Shown here one piece after another: positions 1-8,328 of a stretch of DNA of 55,863 bases; the stretch's first letter is position 1, and each line of letters starts with the position of its first letter. Under the pieces are notes generated by a model. It ran no database searches. It saw only the letters and a program-made list of their open reading frames with translations, and was not told the origin of the DNA. Origin of the DNA: Candidatus Adlerbacteria bacterium (GTDB lineage Bacteria; Patescibacteriota; Minisyncoccia; Phycocordibacterales; SBAW01); the NCBI GenBank assembly GCA_903878285.1, contig CAIRHB010000015.1:1-55863 (forward strand). The letters are read 5' to 3'. The translations under genes and the position numbers were made by a program.

Positions 1-25
1 GTATGTCTTCTGGTGTGAGCGCCAT
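1..25 (-). CDS. 5' end of a gene running off the window (MALTPEDI..., possibly GatC-like)
   Basis: ATG at 25 on the minus strand, preceded by TGgTACACT extended -10; only 8 codons visible. Confidence 0.3.
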
Positions 26-144
26 ACCTGACACACAGTGTACCATTACCGCAAGGGGGTCAGGTGTGGTGGTGGGGATTGGGGGTGTGAGGGGTTACGC
101 GGCAGAGAGTACCCGCAGCTAGCAATATATGGTATAATGCAAAT

Positions 145-318
145 ATGAAAAGCGTGTCCAAAAGCTATACTATTGGTCGCAAGGCGTTCGCTAAAATCAG
201 CGCCGTAGAGGGTATTAGTTTGACCCCACAAATGCGCGAGGATTTTCGCCTGTTTGAGCAACAGAATCTCTCCCACGCAGACAGACGCCAAGCTATTTCC
301 AAAAAGTACGCTCGATAA
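145..318 (+). CDS. 57-aa small protein, VbhA/FicA-like antitoxin type (not in ORF track)
   Basis: Reads MKSVSKSYTIGRKAFAKISAVEGISLTPQMREDFRLFEQQNLSHADRRQAISKKYAR*; TGgTATAAT at 130-138 lies 6 nt before the ATG; the ISAVEG helix resembles the Fic-inhibitory xxxE(G/N) motif. Confidence 0.6.
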   Translation: MKSVSKSYTIGRKAFAKISAVEGISLTPQMREDFRLFEQQNLSHADRRQAISKKYAR

Positions 319-334
319 CTCCAGACATCGTTGA

Positions 335-736
335 ATGTCTTATAGAGAAGATATGCTCAATCATATAACACTCCATGTAAGTAATTTGGAAAAGAGTAAA
401 ACGTTTTTTCGTGCGGCACTTGCACCACTTGGATACAAGTTGCTAATCGAGAAGGAACACTCTGCTGGATTTGGGCAGGAAGACGTTGCAGGCAAGCGCG
501 ACTTTTGGATTAGGCAGCGTGAAATTGGTGACAGTAAGTCGTTTTCTTGCTTGGCGTTCACTGCATCAAGTAAAAATGAAGTCGATATGTTCTATACTGC
601 TGCACTTGGTGCGGGCGGTACTAGCAACGGCGCTCCAGGGTATCGCGTCACGTATCACCCTGGATACTACGCGGCATATATCCTCGACCACAATGGCTAC
701 AACATCGAAGCGGTGTGGGATGATTCAGAAAAATAA
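335..736 (+). CDS. VOC/glyoxalase family protein
   Basis: HITLHVSNLEKSKTFF, GGTSNGAPGYR, YYAAYILDHNGYNIEAV motifs; start may be 353. Confidence 0.9.
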   Translation: MSYREDMLNHITLHVSNLEKSKTFFRAALAPLGYKLLIEKEHSAGFGQEDVAGKRDFWIRQREIGDSKSFSCLAFTASSKNEVDMFYTAALGAGGTSNGAPGYRVTYHPGYYAAYILDHNGYNIEAVWDDSEK

Positions 737-755
737 AAACATAACTCAACGGCAG

Positions 756-787
756 CTACTGCCCAGCAAAAAGGTGCAACTTTTGGG
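756..787 (-). repeat. Degenerate copy of the fba 3' end (copy C)
   Basis: ctactgcccagcaaaaaggtgcaacttttggg, 27/32 identical to 2004-2035; encodes QKLHLFAGQ*. Confidence 0.85.
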
Positions 788-833
788 AGAAACGGGTGCT
801 AGGTATCTTTTTTCTTTTCTTGAGAGCTAGAAA

Positions 834-1304
834 CTACGCGCGCCCAAGCAAGATATACAAGGATTGCCATTGTCCCATAGTCGCAAAATCCACAAGAGCC
901 GTAAGCACCAGCAAGACGAGCAGATTACACGCGATTCGCACAAAGGGAGATGCGGATTGCGCCCTACGATACAGGACACTATCACCAACAAAGAGAGCGC
1001 CGAACGCAATGACTCCTGCAACAACAGAAAAACACACCCGCATCAGTTCACCAATATCGGTACGATGGAACACATCCAAGAGAGCAAGGAAGGGAACAAA
1101 AAGGAACCATTCAATAGTGTGCGGACCAAGAGGAACAAACAAACCGAGGAAATTCACAAACACATTGCCCGAAGCGCCCGTGCCAGTGGGACCGTCGATC
1201 AAGTGCGAAGGAGACCACCCAAATCCCAACAATACCGCTACCCAATACACACATGTGAGAGCCAGATACCAGAAAGCAAATGACGTGTACCGTTTACTGT
1301 TCAT
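834..1304 (-). CDS. Hypothetical multi-pass membrane protein (~4 TM)
   Basis: Hydrophobic 156-aa ORF; TATAAT 6 nt upstream of the ATG. Confidence 0.7.
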   Translation of the reverse strand: MNSKRYTSFAFWYLALTCVYWVAVLLGFGWSPSHLIDGPTGTGASGNVFVNFLGLFVPLGPHTIEWFLFVPFLALLDVFHRTDIGELMRVCFSVVAGVIAFGALFVGDSVLYRRAQSASPFVRIACNLLVLLVLTALVDFATMGQWQSLYILLGRA

Positions 1305-1316
1305 ATGTGTATTATA

Positions 1317-1348
1317 TTACTACCCAGCAAAGAGGCGCAACTTTTGGG
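1317..1348 (-). repeat. Degenerate copy of the fba 3' end (copy B)
   Basis: ttactacccagcaaagaggcgcaacttttggg, 28/32 identical to 2004-2035; encodes QKLRLFAG**. Confidence 0.85.
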
Positions 1349-1369
1349 AAAGACCCTTATACACAATTC

Positions 1370-1398
1370 TTGATATTCTCGGGTCGTTCTGTTACCAT
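1370..1398 (+). promoter_or_regulatory. Sigma70-type promoter of the candidate sRNA
   Basis: TTGATA (1370-1375), 17-nt spacer, TACCAT (1393-1398) with extended TG. Confidence 0.7.
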
Positions 1399-1401
1399 AA
1401 G

Positions 1402-1461
1402 GTGGTGTCTGTGGGCGCAAGCCCCGTTCAGCTCACATCGTAAGCTGAAGACAGACACCAC
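1402..1461 (+). ncRNA. Candidate ~60-nt three-way-junction small RNA of unknown family
   Basis: 11-bp closing stem GTGGTGTCTGT/ACAGACACCAC, GGGC-GCAA-GCCC GNRA hairpin, 7-bp TTCAGCT/AGCTGAA hairpin; has its own promoter and terminator. Confidence 0.6.
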
Positions 1462-1462
1462 G

Positions 1463-1491
1463 AAAGGACCTCTGCAATCGCAGGGGTTTTG
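1463..1491. terminator. Probable bidirectional intrinsic terminator
   Basis: aaaggACCTCTGC-aatc-GCAGGGGTtttg hairpin between the convergent sRNA and CDS. Confidence 0.65.
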
Positions 1492-1504
1492 TCGTATCAT
1501 ATTG

Positions 1505-1981
1505 TTACTCCTCTGCTATGCTGGCACTAGCGAGGTGCAGATATGAATCGCCATCTTTCAGCTTTACCGTTGACATTACGCTCCAAAAGACGATATTCCC
1601 ATTTCCTACACGCCGTAAGATAATCTTTACGCGAATCGGTTTTGAGCCTTTTGTGATAGCAATCACTCCCCAATATTCAATCTCGCGCATTTCTCTTGCA
1701 CCATCAGAAAATCTTCTTTGACCGACTGGCTCCATCGTGTGACGATACTCCTGAATCGTGCCTGCATTGCGCAAGATATGAGGAACGGCGGGCAACAAGC
1801 TAAACTTTAGTAGCTGTTCCTGTTTAGAACGTTCCCGTTCGGCAGAAAACTGGAGATGATGAAAACCATCCGAGTTAAATACAATGTCTAAACCAAAATA
1901 TGGGCACCTAACTTTCCCGATACTTTTATAAAAAGCCTCGGCTTTTTCCTTTTCTCTTCTATATCGTTCCAATAGTTCCAT
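1505..1981 (-). CDS. Hypothetical protein, putative BECR/PBECR-like RNase fold
   Basis: Likely start MELLERY at 1981 with GGGAGG SD; IVFNSDGFHH helix-His motif followed by a beta-meander ending in FWSV; the longer ORF-track version overlaps fba. Confidence 0.6.
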   Translation of the reverse strand: MELLERYRREKEKAEAFYKSIGKVRCPYFGLDIVFNSDGFHHLQFSAERERSKQEQLLKFSLLPAVPHILRNAGTIQEYRHTMEPVGQRRFSDGAREMREIEYWGVIAITKGSKPIRVKIILRRVGNGNIVFWSVMSTVKLKDGDSYLHLASASIAEE

Positions 1982-2003
1982 ACCTATCGCCTCCCACCTA
2001 AGT

Positions 2004-2933
2004 TTACTGCCCAGCAAACAACCGCAACTTTTGGGCGACGTAGGCCTGCATCGCGGTGACGGACGGGGTGAGAAATTTGTAGGGGGTTGTTTCTTCGCTT
2101 GTCGTAAGCGTCTTGCGGAGCGAGTCGCGGTACGCGAGCCGCAGGTCGGTGTTGATGTGGATAATGACCACGCCCGCCTTGACCGCCGCGACAAATTCCT
2201 CGTCGGACGAGCCCGAGCCACCATGGAGCACCAGAGGCACACCAACGTGCCCCGTACTATCTGCCACGCCCGGAGTCGGGTTTACCGCCGCAGACAACGC
2301 CGCGATGCGCGAGATAGAGAGCTTCGGCTGCCCGCTGAGGACAATGCCATGGATATTGCCGACCGCAGGCGCAACGAGGTCGATACCCGTTTGGGCCACC
2401 AGCTCTTGCAGCTCTTCTGGTTTGGTCATCAACTCCTCGGTCGCGGCAGCACCCTCGGGGAGCGCGTCCATCACTGCAGACGAGGTGCCGATGTAACCGA
2501 GCTCCCCTTCGATCAACACCTTCGTGTTGATCGCTCCGAGCGCCGTCGAGGAGCTAGCGTGCTTCTCCTGTGCATACGCTACCGCCGCCTTGCATAGCGC
2601 AACATTATCAGCAAACGACAGCTTCGCACCATCAACGACGACAGAATCTACTCCTGCATCAATCGCGGCGCGCACCTTTTCGATACTGTAGGTGTGGTCG
2701 GCGTTGAGATATATCTGCGCACCCTGCGCGTTGTAGATATCCACTAATGCTCGCGCATGTGTTATTGGAAAATACTCGCGCTCGCCCTCCGACAAACCGA
2801 CCGCGACCGGCAACCCAGTCTCCATCGCCGCCTGCGCGATCGCCTTGAGCTGGTTTGAATCCGAAAAGTTAAAATGCCCCATCGCCCGCCCCGCTTTCGT
2901 ATAATTTTGAATGGTTTCTCGTAGTGTTTGCAT
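2004..2933 (-). CDS. fba: Class II fructose-bisphosphate aldolase
   Basis: ADH, DSVVVDG, EGELG, AVGNIHG, LVLHGGSG, INTD motifs. Confidence 0.93.
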   Translation of the reverse strand: MQTLRETIQNYTKAGRAMGHFNFSDSNQLKAIAQAAMETGLPVAVGLSEGEREYFPITHARALVDIYNAQGAQIYLNADHTYSIEKVRAAIDAGVDSVVVDGAKLSFADNVALCKAAVAYAQEKHASSSTALGAINTKVLIEGELGYIGTSSAVMDALPEGAAATEELMTKPEELQELVAQTGIDLVAPAVGNIHGIVLSGQPKLSISRIAALSAAVNPTPGVADSTGHVGVPLVLHGGSGSSDEEFVAAVKAGVVIIHINTDLRLAYRDSLRKTLTTSEETTPYKFLTPSVTAMQAYVAQKLRLFAGQ

Positions 2934-2940
2934 ACACTTC

Positions 2941-2950
2941 AGTATATACT
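2941..2950. promoter_or_regulatory. Palindromic bidirectional -10 element (AGTATATACT) between divergent fba and PfkB genes
   Basis: Gives TATACT on both strands, 6-7 nt before each ATG (2933 minus, 2957 plus). Confidence 0.65.
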
Positions 2951-2956
2951 ATTTCT

Positions 2957-3955
2957 ATGCAACTAGATTTCCTCGCCATCGGCGATATTGTGACCGAACC
3001 ATTTATCCGTCTCAAAGAAGCGTCTGTGCATTGCAAGATCAATAATGAGGCATGCGAAATCTGCATGCGCTGGGGCGATAAGATCCCCTACGAGTACGAG
3101 GTGCCGATGTACGCCGTCGGCAACTCGGCGAACGCAGCTGTGTCAGCGGCACGGCTCGGGCTCAAGGCGTCGCTGCGCACCTACGTCGGCGACGACGAAG
3201 CTGGCACGCAATGTCTCGAGACATTAACAAAAGAGCATGTCGACACATCACTCATGGTGACCGAGGCGGGAAAGAAAACCAATCACCACTTTGTGTTGTG
3301 GTACGAGACCGAGCGCACTATTTTAGTTAAACATGAAGAGTACACCTACTCTGTACCACCTATAGTTGAAGGGCCAAAGTGGGTGTACCTCTCGTCACTC
3401 GCCGCAAACTCGCTTCCCTACCATCTCGCGCTTGCTGAGTGGCTGAGGACTGTTCCTGACACCAAGCTCGCGTTCCAGCCTGGTACATTTCAGATAAAGC
3501 TCGGTGTCGAAACGCTCAAGGACATCTACATGCGCACCGAGCTCTTTGTCTGCAACAAAGAAGAGGCCGAGCGTATCCTCGGCGTCGAGCCGACCACTGA
3601 GATCAAGAAACTCCTCACCGGCTTGCAAGCGCTCGGGCCAAAGATCGTCATCATTACTGACGATCGACGCGGCGCGTATGCGTTGAGTAGCGCAGGGACA
3701 GCATGGTATGTGCCGATGTACCCCGATGCGCGTGCACCGTTTGAGCGCACCGGCGCTGGCGACGCATTTGCATCGAGCGTCACGGCGGCACTCGCGATCG
3801 GTAAATCACTTGAGGAGGCTCTCTTGTGGGGCCCGATTAATGCAATGTCGGTGGTGCAAGATGTCGGTGCACAAAAAGGACTCCTCACACGGGAGCAGCT
3901 GGAGATGTATCTGCACACTGCGCCGAAAGAGTACGCGCTCTCACCACTCGCATAG
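2957..3955 (+). CDS. PfkB-family carbohydrate kinase
   Basis: GNSANAAVSAARLG, NKEEA, RTGAGDAF signature; start at MQLDF. Confidence 0.9.
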   Translation: MQLDFLAIGDIVTEPFIRLKEASVHCKINNEACEICMRWGDKIPYEYEVPMYAVGNSANAAVSAARLGLKASLRTYVGDDEAGTQCLETLTKEHVDTSLMVTEAGKKTNHHFVLWYETERTILVKHEEYTYSVPPIVEGPKWVYLSSLAANSLPYHLALAEWLRTVPDTKLAFQPGTFQIKLGVETLKDIYMRTELFVCNKEEAERILGVEPTTEIKKLLTGLQALGPKIVIITDDRRGAYALSSAGTAWYVPMYPDARAPFERTGAGDAFASSVTAALAIGKSLEEALLWGPINAMSVVQDVGAQKGLLTREQLEMYLHTAPKEYALSPLA

Positions 3956-4018
3956 CCTCATATTTTTCCATTAAGCCCATCACACAAAGACAGACGGGAG
4001 ACCTGGGAAGCAGCACAA

Positions 4019-4192
4019 CTACGGTTGTTGTGTATACAAACTTGTTGCGAGAAAATCGGCGAAAGGGTTTTTGTTATATGCCGCTTTCCACACAATCAAC
4101 AGCATAGCGAATGAAAACGCGGCTACAAACGCGAGCCCAACAAACGTATTAATATTCGCCTGCCACCACCGCGCGTCGCCACTGGTCATCAT
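4019..4192 (-). CDS. 57-aa single-TM small protein (not in ORF track)
   Basis: MMTSGDARWWQANINTFVGLAFVAAFSFAMLLIVWKAAYNKNPFADFLATSLYTQQP*; ATGA overlap with the transketolase stop. Confidence 0.65.
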   Translation of the reverse strand: MMTSGDARWWQANINTFVGLAFVAAFSFAMLLIVWKAAYNKNPFADFLATSLYTQQP

Positions 4193-5184
4193 ATACGGGT
4201 TAACTTGCGAGACTGCGCTTTTTTGATTGCTGCGACGACGTGTAAGACGCCCATGCCGTAGTGCTCGATAAGCTCGCTCGGCTCGCCCGATTGCCCAAAC
4301 TGGTCGCGCACACCAACAAACTCGATTGGTACGGGGTACTCCTGCGCAAGTAGCTCGGCGATTGCCCCACCCAGACCGCCTGCAATCTGGTGCTCCTCGA
4401 CGGTCACGACAGCACCCGCCGCACGTGCCAGAGCGACCACCGCCTCGCGGTCGAGCGGTTTAATGGTGTGGATGTTGGTGACCGAGACAGCAGTGCTCGA
4501 CCCGAGCTCTTTTGCTGCCGCGAGCGCGTTGTAGAGCAGCGGGCCAGTCGCGAAGATTGCCACCTCGGGGCGCTCGCTTGTCCACACTGTTTGCGCTTTG
4601 CCAAAGACAAACGGTGTCTCGGCGGTCGTCATCAGCGGCGTCTTCTCACGGCCAAAGCGCAAATACACAGGGCCATCATGCGCCGCCGCGGCAAGCGTCG
4701 CCTTGTATGCCTCCACCTCGTCGCAGGGCGACAACACGGTCATGTGTGGCACGACGCGCATGAGCGCGATGTCCTCCAGCGCCTGATGCGTCGCGCCGTC
4801 GGGCCCGACCGACACCCCCGCATGCATACCGCATACCTTGACGGGCAGCTGGTTGAGCGCTGTGGTGGTGCGAATCTGCTCCCAGTTGCGCCCAGGAGAA
4901 AACGCCGCGTAGGACGCGACAAAGGGGACTCTGCCATAGGCGGCAAACCCCGCGGCAAGTGTGACGAGATTCTGCTCCGCGACACCCACCTCGACAAACC
5001 GCTCGGGATATTTTTCCTTAAACGGCAGCGTGCGCGTCGACTCTGCCAAGTCGGCACAGAGCACCACAACATTCTTGTGTGTCTCTCCCAACTTGAGCAA
5101 CGCGCGACCAAACCCATCACGCGTGGGAGCCTGTTCTTTCATCTCAAACAAATCACTTCGCAGTTGTGCAGTTGGTTCTAGCAT
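4189..5184 (-). CDS. tkt: Transketolase, C-terminal (pyrimidine-binding) subunit
   Basis: GVAEQN, GPDGATHQ, VEEHQIAGGLG. Confidence 0.92.
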   Translation of the reverse strand: MLEPTAQLRSDLFEMKEQAPTRDGFGRALLKLGETHKNVVVLCADLAESTRTLPFKEKYPERFVEVGVAEQNLVTLAAGFAAYGRVPFVASYAAFSPGRNWEQIRTTTALNQLPVKVCGMHAGVSVGPDGATHQALEDIALMRVVPHMTVLSPCDEVEAYKATLAAAAHDGPVYLRFGREKTPLMTTAETPFVFGKAQTVWTSERPEVAIFATGPLLYNALAAAKELGSSTAVSVTNIHTIKPLDREAVVALARAAGAVVTVEEHQIAGGLGGAIAELLAQEYPVPIEFVGVRDQFGQSGEPSELIEHYGMGVLHVVAAIKKAQSRKLTRI

Positions 5185-5185
5185 A

Positions 5186-6040
5186 TCACTGATGTTCGCT
5201 CCTAATCTTCCCGCCCATCGTTCGTAGTTCGTTCAAGAATGTTTGTGTTTCTTCTTTTGACTTGGGGTAGCCGTGGTAGTGATAGTCGCGCTCGATTTCT
5301 GGCACTCCTTTGCCAGGGATGGTGTGCGCGAGAATGAGCGTTGGCTTGTCTGCCACCTCCTTTGCCTGCTCGACCACGTCAACAAACGCGCGAACATTGT
5401 TGCCATCCACCTCGAACACCTGCCAATTAAACGCCTCGTACTTTGCGCGCAAGTTTTCAAGCGGCAGCACATCCTCGGTCGTGCCGTCGATCTGGATATG
5501 GTTGCGATCGATAATTGCGATAAGATTGCCGAGATGGTTCGCACCTGCAAACATCGCCGCCTCCCACACATTGCCCTCGTCCTGCTCGCCGTCGCCCATG
5601 ATGCAAAAAATATGGAAAGGGTCGGTGCGTGCCGCATACGCATACCCTGCCGCTTGGCTCAGCCCCTCGCCGAGCGGCCCCGAGGTCGACTCAAGGCCGG
5701 CCAGGCGCAGGCGCTCGGGATGCCCCTGCAGACGCGAGCCAAACTTGCGCAAGGTGAGACACTCCTCGAGTGGGAAGTAGCCTGCATGCGCCATCGCGGC
5801 ATAGCGCACCGGAGCGGTGTGCCCGTTTGACATAAACAGCCGATCGCGCCCCTGCCACTCGGGCTCGCTTGGTCGTTGGTTGAGAATATGAAAATAGAGC
5901 GCCGCATAGATATCCGCCAGACCAAGCGGCGACGCGATATGCCCGCTGCCTGCCGCGAGCAGCATCTCGACGATGGTCTCGCGGATTGCTTGCGCTTTCG
6001 CTTCGAGCATTTGCGCCTCGTTGTCGGTAAGTGTTGTCAT
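5186..6040 (-). CDS. tkt: Transketolase, N-terminal (TPP-binding) subunit
   Basis: GSGH, SNGH, LQGHP, GDGEQDEG TPP motif; start MTTLTDNE with TGcTACACT 6 nt upstream. Confidence 0.92.
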   Translation of the reverse strand: MTTLTDNEAQMLEAKAQAIRETIVEMLLAAGSGHIASPLGLADIYAALYFHILNQRPSEPEWQGRDRLFMSNGHTAPVRYAAMAHAGYFPLEECLTLRKFGSRLQGHPERLRLAGLESTSGPLGEGLSQAAGYAYAARTDPFHIFCIMGDGEQDEGNVWEAAMFAGANHLGNLIAIIDRNHIQIDGTTEDVLPLENLRAKYEAFNWQVFEVDGNNVRAFVDVVEQAKEVADKPTLILAHTIPGKGVPEIERDYHYHGYPKSKEETQTFLNELRTMGGKIRSEHQ

Positions 6041-6059
6041 ATATGGAGTGTAGCACACG

Positions 6060-6791
6060 TTAGCGCACCGCGTCGCGAAGCGCCGCGAGCGAAGCGAGCG
6101 GATCTTTTGCACCAAAGATCGCTGACCCAACGATGAGCCGGTTGGCGCCCGCATGCACCAAGGACTGTGCGTTTTCGAGCGTCACTCCGCCGTCCACCTG
6201 GAGCGGCAGCTGCGGATATCGACGACGCAATCGCTCGACCAGGAACACCGTGTGCGGATTAAACGGCTGCCCCTGTTTACCAACACGGTCAACCCCCATC
6301 ACTTGGATAAAATCAAACTGCGCCTCAAACGACTCAAGCAGGTCTGGCTGGTCGGTCGGCAACACCGCAACACCAACCGTAATCGACAGGCTACCCGTGC
6401 TGTCGTCGCGCACATCAACCAGCGACTGGAACGCCGCGAGCGCCTGCTCGCTATGTGCATGCAGTACGATGCGCGATGCACCAGCACGTACAAAGTCGCG
6501 CACATCCTCAAGTGGGTTCGCAAGCATCAGGTCAAACTCAAAGTCCAGGTCACCCCAAAACGGCAGCCCGTGTTCTTCGGCGATAATTTTATCAAACTCG
6601 GTGCGGTCGGTGTATGGCCACGTCTTCGACCCAGCAAACACGCCGTCGACAACATCAACCTGTACCCGCTTGGTAGCGGCATGGATGATGCCCAGATGCT
6701 GCTCCAAGTCGCGAAATCGCTTTGGCAGTATCGCCGGAATAATCTCCACCGCGGTTGGCAAACCAGCGGTATGTGTATACGGGTCAACCAT
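6060..6791 (-). CDS. rpe: Ribulose-phosphate 3-epimerase
   Basis: DVVDG, QVMG..G.QGQ.F, QVDGGV, VGSAIF; start overlaps the rpiB stop. Confidence 0.88.
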   Translation of the reverse strand: MVDPYTHTAGLPTAVEIIPAILPKRFRDLEQHLGIIHAATKRVQVDVVDGVFAGSKTWPYTDRTEFDKIIAEEHGLPFWGDLDFEFDLMLANPLEDVRDFVRAGASRIVLHAHSEQALAAFQSLVDVRDDSTGSLSITVGVAVLPTDQPDLLESFEAQFDFIQVMGVDRVGKQGQPFNPHTVFLVERLRRRYPQLPLQVDGGVTLENAQSLVHAGANRLIVGSAIFGAKDPLASLAALRDAVR

Positions 6792-7275
6792 GGTCGAGTT
6801 CTGCGATCCGTCGGATGTGTCGCGCGTCACCACTAAACGGCACTGCGAGCCAGAGCTTCACCACACGCTCTACCTCCTCCTGCGTTAAAAACTTCGCGCC
6901 AAGCGAGAGAATGTTTGCATCATTATGTTGTCGCGAGAGCACGAGCACCTCGTCGGCTTGCCCCTCCGAAACCGCAGGCGAAACGGACCCATAGTACACA
7001 GCAGCGCGCGCACCCCGTACACGGTTTGCAGCCATCGCCTCGCCCTGCCCCGAGAGACCAATCATGATTCCAAACACCGAGCCAGTGGCTGTAGCAGCTT
7101 CAGTATCTGCCGCAACTCTCTGCGCAAGCGGGATACAATAGTCGGGGTAGTCGTCACCAGGCACGAGCGTATACGGGCCCATATCCTCGACCTCGTACCC
7201 CTGCTCGCGCAGATAAGCGGCAAGCACCGCCTTGAGTTCGAACCCGTCGTGGTCTGAGGCAAGATAGATGCGCAT
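6784..7275 (-). CDS. rpiB: Ribose-5-phosphate isomerase B
   Basis: ASDHDG, DYPD, ANRVRGARAA, RQHNDANILSLG, RHIRRI. Confidence 0.92.
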   Translation of the reverse strand: MRIYLASDHDGFELKAVLAAYLREQGYEVEDMGPYTLVPGDDYPDYCIPLAQRVAADTEAATATGSVFGIMIGLSGQGEAMAANRVRGARAAVYYGSVSPAVSEGQADEVLVLSRQHNDANILSLGAKFLTQEEVERVVKLWLAVPFSGDARHIRRIAELDHG

Positions 7276-7278
7276 ACC

Positions 7279-8328
7279 TTATATATGCTTCGCGAGTCTA
7301 CTCACGTGCTCGACCAGCGCGTGTGTGTAGCCCATCTCGTTGTCGTACCACGCAAGCACCTTGACCAAGTTACCGCCGATCACGCGCGTGAGCGACAGGT
7401 CGGCAATCGACGCCTGTGCCGAGCCCAAGATGTCGCTCGATACGAGCGGTTCGTCGGTGACGCCAAAGACCGGCTTCCAGCGATCCTCGCCTGCTGCCTT
7501 CGTTAAAATCGCGTTCACCTCTTCGACGCTCGTGTCGCGCTTCGCGATAAAGGTGACATCGGCGATAGATCCTGCGATCACCGGCACACGCAGGCTGATG
7601 CCGTCGAACTTGCCAGCCAAGTCGGGAATGGCCTTGGTGACCGCGATCGCAGCGCCAGTCGAGGAAGGGACGATGTTGTGTGCGCCCGCGCGCCCGTCGC
7701 GGTAGTCCTCCTTCCCTTTCGCCTTCTTGACTGGACCATCAACCAAGTTCTGTGACGCGGTGTAGCCGTGCGTTGTCGAGAGCACCGCCTTTTCGATCCC
7801 GATCGCCTCGTGAAGAATTTGCATTAGCGGACTTGATGCGTTGGTGGTGCAGGATGCATTGGAGGTGATGGTACTCGTGGCAAACTTGTCGTCGTTGATG
7901 CCGACAAGAATCGTCGCACCCGTGTACCCCGCAGATCCGTCAGCGGGTGTTTCATCTTTGACGGGCGCGGTAATCACCACACGCTTGGCACCCGCGTCGA
8001 GATGTACCTTTGCTTTCTCAAAACTGGTAAAAAATCCGGTCGACTCAACCACGACGTCGATACCTAAATCCTTCCATGGCAACTTCGCTGGGTCGGCTTC
8101 GGAGAAGTGTTTGATTTCTTTTCCATCGACCACCAACGCGTTGCCCGCAGTCGCCACACTAAACGACGGCTTGCCGTAGACGCTGTCGTACTGGAGCAAG
8201 TACGCCAGCTGCGCAGCATCGCCCAAGTCGTTAATCGCTATCACCTCTAGCCCTGGTCGCTCGTGCGCGATGCGCAAAAACGCTCTGCCAATCCGCCCAA
8301 ACCCGTTTATCGCAATTTTTGTAGTCAT
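7279..8328 (-). CDS. gap: Glyceraldehyde-3-phosphate dehydrogenase
   Basis: INGFGRIGR, NASCTTN, WYDNEMGY. Confidence 0.97.
   Translation of the reverse strand: MTTKIAINGFGRIGRAFLRIAHERPGLEVIAINDLGDAAQLAYLLQYDSVYGKPSFSVATAGNALVVDGKEIKHFSEADPAKLPWKDLGIDVVVESTGFFTSFEKAKVHLDAGAKRVVITAPVKDETPADGSAGYTGATILVGINDDKFATSTITSNASCTTNASSPLMQILHEAIGIEKAVLSTTHGYTASQNLVDGPVKKAKGKEDYRDGRAGAHNIVPSSTGAAIAVTKAIPDLAGKFDGISLRVPVIAGSIADVTFIAKRDTSVEEVNAILTKAAGEDRWKPVFGVTDEPLVSSDILGSAQASIADLSLTRVIGGNLVKVLAWYDNEMGYTHALVEHVSRLAKHI

Follow-up and report, generated by a model that had tools for sequence, protein, structure and literature searches.

Type III toxin-antitoxin (TA) systems such as ToxIN/AbiQ, CptIN and TenpIN combine a single small RNase gene, a short structured RNA that inhibits the enzyme by binding it, and an intrinsic terminator. 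As presented in the accessible text of a recent preprint, their RNAs are tandem repeats co-transcribed upstream of the toxin gene, ToxI RNAs form pseudoknots and the toxins are all ToxN homologs; AbiF, an Abi_2-family protein linked to Cas13, has repeated abiF motifs upstream (bioRxiv 10.1101/2025.04.15.648962). The Colicin-like BECR RNases (CdiA-CT Kp342, colicin D, PBECR domains) are built from a pre-helix, a helix and four strands, with a His on the pre-helix, a Ser/Thr on the last strand and an Arg/Lys nearby; the members characterised in the available literature extracts leave the cell by export or are delivered by phages, and proteins serve as their immunity factors. In similar extracts, LPD3 (PF18798), a domain of phage polyvalent proteins, has no assigned function and no linked RNA is described. 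The cassette analysed here, of about 640 bp, lies in contig CAIRHB010000015.1 (55,863 nucleotides, hereafter the window; contig C15) of a 0.93-Mb Candidatus Adlerbacteria genome (G000), and consists of a small protein gene convergent with a three-way-junction RNA. The protein-RNA module is real and widespread and apparently undescribed. It is best read, at a probability of roughly 0.6, as a type III-like TA pair in which a predicted ribonuclease of the Colicin-like BECR type is likely bound and inhibited by the RNA.

Its parts are, in window positions:
1370-1398, plus strand: sigma-70-like RNA promoter; -35 TTGATA at 1370-1375, 17 nt, TG-extended -10 TACCAT at 1393-1398
1402-1461, plus strand: three-way-junction non-coding RNA of about 60 nt, predicted antitoxin (fold, covariation, co-occurrence; no Rfam match)
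1402-1412/1451-1461, plus strand: P1 of the RNA, an 11-bp closing stem
1413-1416/1421-1424, plus strand: P2 of the RNA, GCAA loop at 1417-1420
1427-1433/1443-1449, plus strand: P3 of the RNA, 9-nt loop at 1434-1442, variable among homologs
1462-1494, no strand assigned: hairpin resembling a terminator (1468-1475/1480-1487) with a T run, placed where RNA and gene converge and likely used by both
1505-1981, minus strand: open reading frame (ORF) of a predicted RNase toxin, 158 aa, pI 9.5; solo, LPD3-related, predicted Colicin-like BECR fold; conserved H42, R51, F132 and S134

The cassette resembles type III systems in its single, here predicted, RNase gene, short structured RNA, intrinsic terminator and proposed inhibition by RNA binding, and two homologous loci (L026 and L033) share the order RNA, terminator, gene. 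It differs from them, as they are presented in that preprint text, in having one RNA copy instead of tandem repeats, an RNA promoter of its own with a convergent layout in 147 of 159 loci (upstream in two, L026 and L033), a nested three-way junction, and a protein without a ToxN-type profile match. Having no repeat array, mostly no upstream co-transcription and no homologous toxin, it is not a member of ToxIN, CptIN, TenpIN, AbiQ or AbiF as described there. AbiF/RCd22 of C. difficile is, by the same text, likewise type III-like although its toxin is no relative of ToxN, and its RNA neutralises in trans; the present protein is, however, BECR/LPD3-like and the RNA matches no Rfam family. Unlike the known Colicin-like BECR RNases, it is encoded by a stand-alone gene of cytoplasmic type with an RNA and no conserved partner protein. 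Its relation to LPD3 rests on fold and on a weak profile match (E 3e-4; 21.4 bits, below the 27-bit Pfam cut-off), and unlike LPD3 it is solo and chromosomal.

A conserved three-way-junction RNA

The junction at 1402-1461 has a predicted energy of -34.3 kcal/mol (z = -6.0), and none of 200 shuffles is as stable. An earlier note, made from the window sequence alone, had proposed a three-way junction with one GNRA loop and one 9-nt loop, and folding places these as GCAA at 1417-1420 and at 1434-1442. The covariation test that it had suggested was carried out on homologs: in a diverse RNA set (n = 45), pairing is kept in 95% of cells and two-sided changes are seen at 16 of 18 pairs, values that exceed those of 500 shuffles and of every slid control; a closer set shows such changes at 7 of 18 pairs. 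RNAalifold recovered the identical fold. As regards pseudoknots, these analyses counted the nested junction only. Across homologs P1 spans 7-9 bp and the P2 loops are mostly GNRA or UUCG, which fixes the RNA strand. The P3 cap varies from 3 to 22 nt, at odds with the anticodon-like role once considered for the 9-nt loop. The folded structure of the junction RNA is genuine. The CUGA in P3 suggested a hammerhead by eye, a reading dropped as the motif is not conserved.

The promoter noted earlier, TTGATA-N17-TACCAT, is found at 1370-1398 and is kept across homologs. Taken in isolation the motif is near chance (3 sites vs 2.3 expected); a promoter match of at least 9/12 stands ahead of P1 in 100 of 143 loci, vs 71 of 2860 shuffles, and in 87 of these 100 loci the end of the -10 is 5-6 nt away from P1. 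The proposed shared terminator holds as far as the hairpin at 1468-1487 with its short T run is concerned, but a strict terminator scan did not call it. Among loci with at least 25 nt of spacing, a hairpin and U tract follow the RNA in 123 of 125, and several loci have U's directly after P1. From the promoter position and these downstream signals, the transcript likely starts at P1 without need of processing; in the window the start would likely lie at 1404-1405, and even then both C's of the CCA would be paired.

Rfam gave no match in window positions 1-8000 at E <= 10, as had been anticipated. Over 17 homolog loci nothing credible covered the RNA, two sub-threshold hits (E about 1; L050, L086) overlapping the RNA or terminator. 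DnaA-box-like 9-mers occur 30-90 nt upstream of the RNA start (about 1358-1366 in the window) in 22 of 139 loci, compared with 1 of 129 more distant windows; as these control windows are mostly coding DNA, the 9-mers may simply be common in intergenic DNA.

A predicted Colicin-like BECR ribonuclease

The 158-aa protein that the earlier note had reported corresponds to the ORF at 1505-1981, with a dN/dS of 0.044 against its ortholog in another genome of the genus (G007). The structural model places helices at 37-41 and 53-72 and strands at 78-86, 97-109, 117-125 and 130-137, the pre-alpha, alpha, beta1-beta4 order of Colicin-like BECR proteins, and a second homolog model has the same order. H42 and R51 are present in 137 of 137 sequences, S134 in 136 (Thr in the other) and R/K123 in 132; these four positions are nearly invariant in 91 distant members, 22 of which also match the LPD3 profile. 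Among viral structures, the top Foldseek matches are to LPD3 (E 1e-4 to 1e-2, TM about 0.5); the best folds are BECR-type, and RegB is among the matches. Foldseek against PDB was negative for both models, sequence searches of NCBIfam, PHROGs, PADLOC and PDB returned nothing usable, and the ToxN/AbiQ/CptN/TenpN profiles in Pfam, NCBIfam or PADLOC did not match. Predicted fold, topology and conserved residues agree with the BECR-like assignment made earlier, and the protein is, by its model, a predicted RNase toxin.

The best 150 homolog matches are nearly all solo-sized, with one 388-aa fusion (P0163). Its family domain lies C-terminal to a nucleotidyltransferase-like part on a single short contig, and it may be a read-through gene call.

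RNA and protein occur as a pair

From the first 63 loci, 47 RNAs were used to build a covariance model (R1), which matches 58 of the 63; four of the five missed loci have a divergent junction, on which a second model (R2) was built and which it recovered. The R2 counts are partly circular. Outside the training set, R1 matches 78 of the best 80 of 349 metagenome loci, and in the other two the sequence stops 66 and 35 nt past the gene stop. Of 159 non-redundant loci, 147 have a tight antisense junction no more than 140 nt from the stop by a model-free scan, which also found one in 9 of 316 control windows; the 147 include L012, where the scan took a wrong hairpin and R1 found the true RNA. The 12 misses comprise three contig ends, L026 and L033 with the RNA upstream, L081, L082 and L089 with a junction by R2 or folding, the doubtful L087, two truncated genes without RNA (L024, L099) and a marginal 20-bit match (L105).

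The association also holds from the RNA side. In 150 genomes of the phylum, 9 of 10 R1 matches touch an intact or broken gene; with R2 and a wider protein profile, 14 of 16 RNA matches adjoin 14 of 18 gene loci. Among 61 relatives, 12 gene loci pair with 12 of 13 RNA matches, in the same 7 genomes. There is one RNA per gene, the sole tandem RNAs being an orphan pair of two different variants. In nine pairs whose synonymous sites are saturated, the RNAs still share 81-89% identity. Over 137 loci the similarity of the RNAs follows that of the proteins (rho 0.87), a sequence correlation that speaks for co-inheritance only. Nearly all loci are convergent, with the RNA at a median of 34 nt from the gene stop; in L026 and L033 the RNA precedes the gene on its strand, and a promoter-like site is also found ahead of the gene. 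The 513 flanking ORFs fall into 478 clusters and no third gene belongs to the unit. Gene and RNA are each conserved and under purifying selection, stand side by side one-to-one and have inserted at unrelated places in the chromosome, and these counts bear out the self-contained, co-inherited unit of the earlier note. Two divergent cassettes stand in tandem at L179:684-1163 and 1456-1956, with an RNA variant for each.

Loss pattern and proposed mechanism

Loss is lopsided: RNAs persist beside broken genes and as orphans, and the clear RNA-less genes are truncated. A second RNA of another subfamily in this genome (G000:C17:12913-12970; L073:1501-1558, minus strand) retains promoter and terminator, adjoins a gene-end remnant of about 10 codons and abuts the stop codon of an ABC ATPase gene. 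L191 (G103:C5, about 6230-6345, plus strand) carries a tandem of two unlike junction RNAs with a single terminator-like hairpin behind them, and no family gene was found in this 96%-complete genome. L221 (G518:C112:2426-2487, minus strand) is a junction RNA without a gene, downstream of which lie a second promoter and a further structured stretch; its host metagenome-assembled genome (MAG) is labelled Nanoarchaeia and is possibly misbinned.

This gain and loss pattern fits an RNA antitoxin. The lopsided loss points to an RNA that acts on the protein, as do the working of the unit in either orientation, the complementarity of the RNA core to the mRNA over 7 nt only, and the stacking of divergent pairs within a genome or in tandem, each with its RNA. 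Under the TA explanation, the near-consensus promoter of the RNA would supply it in excess, as a transcript already of the right size, running from P1 to the terminator or to U's right after P1, with no array processing needed. The basic protein would bind the helices and junction, which are conserved in sequence, and not the variable P3 loop. Were transcription to stop or the cassette to be lost, the RNA would decay and the His42/Arg51/Ser134 pocket would cut host RNA; the analogy to other Colicin-like BECR enzymes makes tRNA the likeliest target. The outcome may be cassette addiction, and possibly dormancy under phage infection or stress.

The C-terminally truncated gene at L024:2995-3435, on a contig of the Bacteroidota isolate Mucilaginibacter pankratovii, is 74% identical to a metagenome member (P0024) and retains all three conserved residues without an RNA, which makes it the weak point of this explanation. 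Pairing, covariation and orientation independence would fit equally well if the RNA were the working part, a regulator of or decoy for a host or phage protein, and the protein a non-toxic binder, stabiliser or trimming maturase. Orphan RNAs, the tandem pair included, are compatible with such an RNA, and BECR-fold enzymes, RegB among the matches, include processing nucleases. We nevertheless consider it unlikely: the patchy spread (26 of 401 high-quality genomes of the phylum; 7 of 61 relatives), several divergent pairs per genome and frequent gene breakage have the look of a conflict module, and RNA ends apparently set by promoter and terminator alone leave little to process.

A broader and rather unlikely version makes the junction RNA a general inhibitor of LPD3/Colicin-like BECR nucleases, with the orphan RNAs and arrays (G000:C17, G103:C5, L221) disarming incoming cassettes or phage-injected LPD3 domains of polyvalent proteins. 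If so, it would be an RNA-based immunity in Patescibacteria, the RNA equivalent of orphan immunity-gene arrays, and give LPD3 its first function.

Convergent type I pairs such as txpA/RatA suggest another arrangement, in which the RNA silences the gene's mRNA through overlapping 3' ends. The convergent layout would suit it, and P1 ends 2-12 nt from the stop in some loci, so that transcripts would overlap the RNA fully. Antisense control is nevertheless very unlikely, given that L026 and L033 carry the RNA upstream on the same strand without overlap, that the conserved fold lies outside the likely overlap and that orphan RNAs persist; the 7 nt of complementarity concern the RNA core, and the 3' ends may overlap at the terminator.

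It is scarcely plausible that the RNA mimics tRNA in the strict sense, by an acceptor stem that ends in CCA, and so acts as decoy for a tRNase. P1 at 7-9 bp does resemble an acceptor stem, and the closest solved fold cleaves the uncharged tRNA-Ile acceptor end, according to the accessible part of its report (PMC9086364). The earlier note had likewise read the closing stem and ACCA as a tRNA end, but the stem is 11 bp and ACCA pairs with 1403-1406. Just 13 of 143 loci have a CCA close to where the stem ends, no loop is fixed at 7 nt, and neither ARAGORN, which called no tRNA in the window, nor Rfam gave a tRNA match. The tRNA-acceptor form of the antitoxin or decoy proposed earlier is not supported, and its antitoxin part agrees with the gain and loss pattern; a looser mimicry of tRNA shape is compatible with the TA explanation.

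Novelty of the pair

Literature searches returned no description of this protein-RNA pair. The accessible text of the Minerva preprint mentions neither BECR, Patescibacteria nor three-way, and the main text of a BECR classification preprint mentions none of LPD, Patescibacteria, CPR (candidate phyla radiation), non-coding or type III; either supplement could still list the protein family or RNA. To our knowledge, RNA antitoxins acting on proteins exist for very few toxin folds. If the mechanism holds, the cassette would be a new family of RNA-controlled toxin systems, an independent origin of RNA antitoxins on the BECR fold that uses one separately transcribed three-way junction and no repeat array, in a phylum whose defence and dormancy controls are poorly known. 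Its size and natural cognate and non-cognate sets make it directly testable in E. coli. It also opens a way to study the phage LPD3 domain, which is uncharacterised, and provides Rfam with a new RNA family.

Genomic setting and distribution

The cassette adjoins fba, the class II fructose-bisphosphate aldolase gene (2004-2933, minus strand). Repeat comparison gives three copies of its 3' end, none assigned a strand:
2005-2041: intact fba 3' end, the likely cassette insertion site in this lineage
1318-1354: second, diverged copy, which bounds the cassette
757-793: third copy

None of these copies (at 759, 1320 and 2007) is expected by chance. Between those at 1320 and 2007 lie the gene and RNA unit and nothing else, as the earlier note had seen for its two copies. 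The cassette gene starts 22 nt past the fba stop behind a GGAGG site and is therefore likely co-transcribed with fba. Of 60 genomes searched in the genus, five others match, each with a single copy, and G007 has the same cassette at its fba end without a recognisable second repeat. The repeats are thus probably local traces of insertion at fba, outside the system. A role for the repeat as a system component was rejected, other loci being at unrelated sites and copies single across the genus.

The least credible explanation, a minimal self-mobile element with hairpins as DNA ends or guide and a protein that drives movement, could draw on this duplication, the unrelated insertion sites and the lack of a mobility gene within the unit, but is countered by scattered homology limits in 16 close cassette pairs (from -259 to +138 relative to the start of the gene and from +1 to +200 beyond that of the RNA), by a promoter, GNRA/UUCG loops and G-U pairs that indicate RNA, by the RNase-like fold and by the integrase genes among the neighbours (6 of 141) being those of other elements.

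These 141 scanned neighbours (224 collected) are, where named, mostly housekeeping genes, with 6 integrases/recombinases and about 5 plausible defence genes, counts that have no baseline; a defence-island setting was unsupported. A tRNA lies within 400 nt in 15 of 159 loci. Pattern searches of IMG/VR (protein patterns, exact RNA pattern) and tblastn against INPHARED phages and PLSDB plasmids found no copy, at a sensitivity limited to close relatives.

The family comprises 1,095 clusters at 50% identity, is present in roughly 6-11% of sampled Patescibacteria genomes, and its homologs are labelled Patescibacteria. Outside the phylum, a Blastocatellia MAG carries a complete cassette (L044); the stretch of the 2.9-Mb contig in which it lies is low in GC and also encodes a transglycosylase and an SF2 helicase. 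LOOT RNA (RF03000) is a CPR-associated orphan RNA; one copy (78.5 bits) lies at L036:2331-2456, plus strand, 545 nt upstream of a cassette gene. It differs from the junction RNA in sequence, in its length of about 120 nt and in its site (the latter being at 3486-3546).

The third fba copy separates further small modules, which encode a membrane protein of 156 aa that matches no family (834-1304), a glyoxalase/VOC protein (335-736) and an ORF of 57 aa (145-318). The copy at 1318 may, by eye, provide the -35 of the membrane-protein gene. Window positions 1-98 are a repeat end, about 98 nt of which recur with 99-100% identity close to where six other contigs end (C13, C19, C20, C23, C28, C29), at the start of C30 and as a short partial copy on C2; it seems to hold a minus-strand gene start and is likely an unassembled multi-copy insertion element. 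Elsewhere in the genome, ARAGORN called tRNA-Ile(UAU) at C2:50113-50185 and tRNA-Ala(AGC) at C33:38949-39023, whose anticodons are unusual in bacteria.
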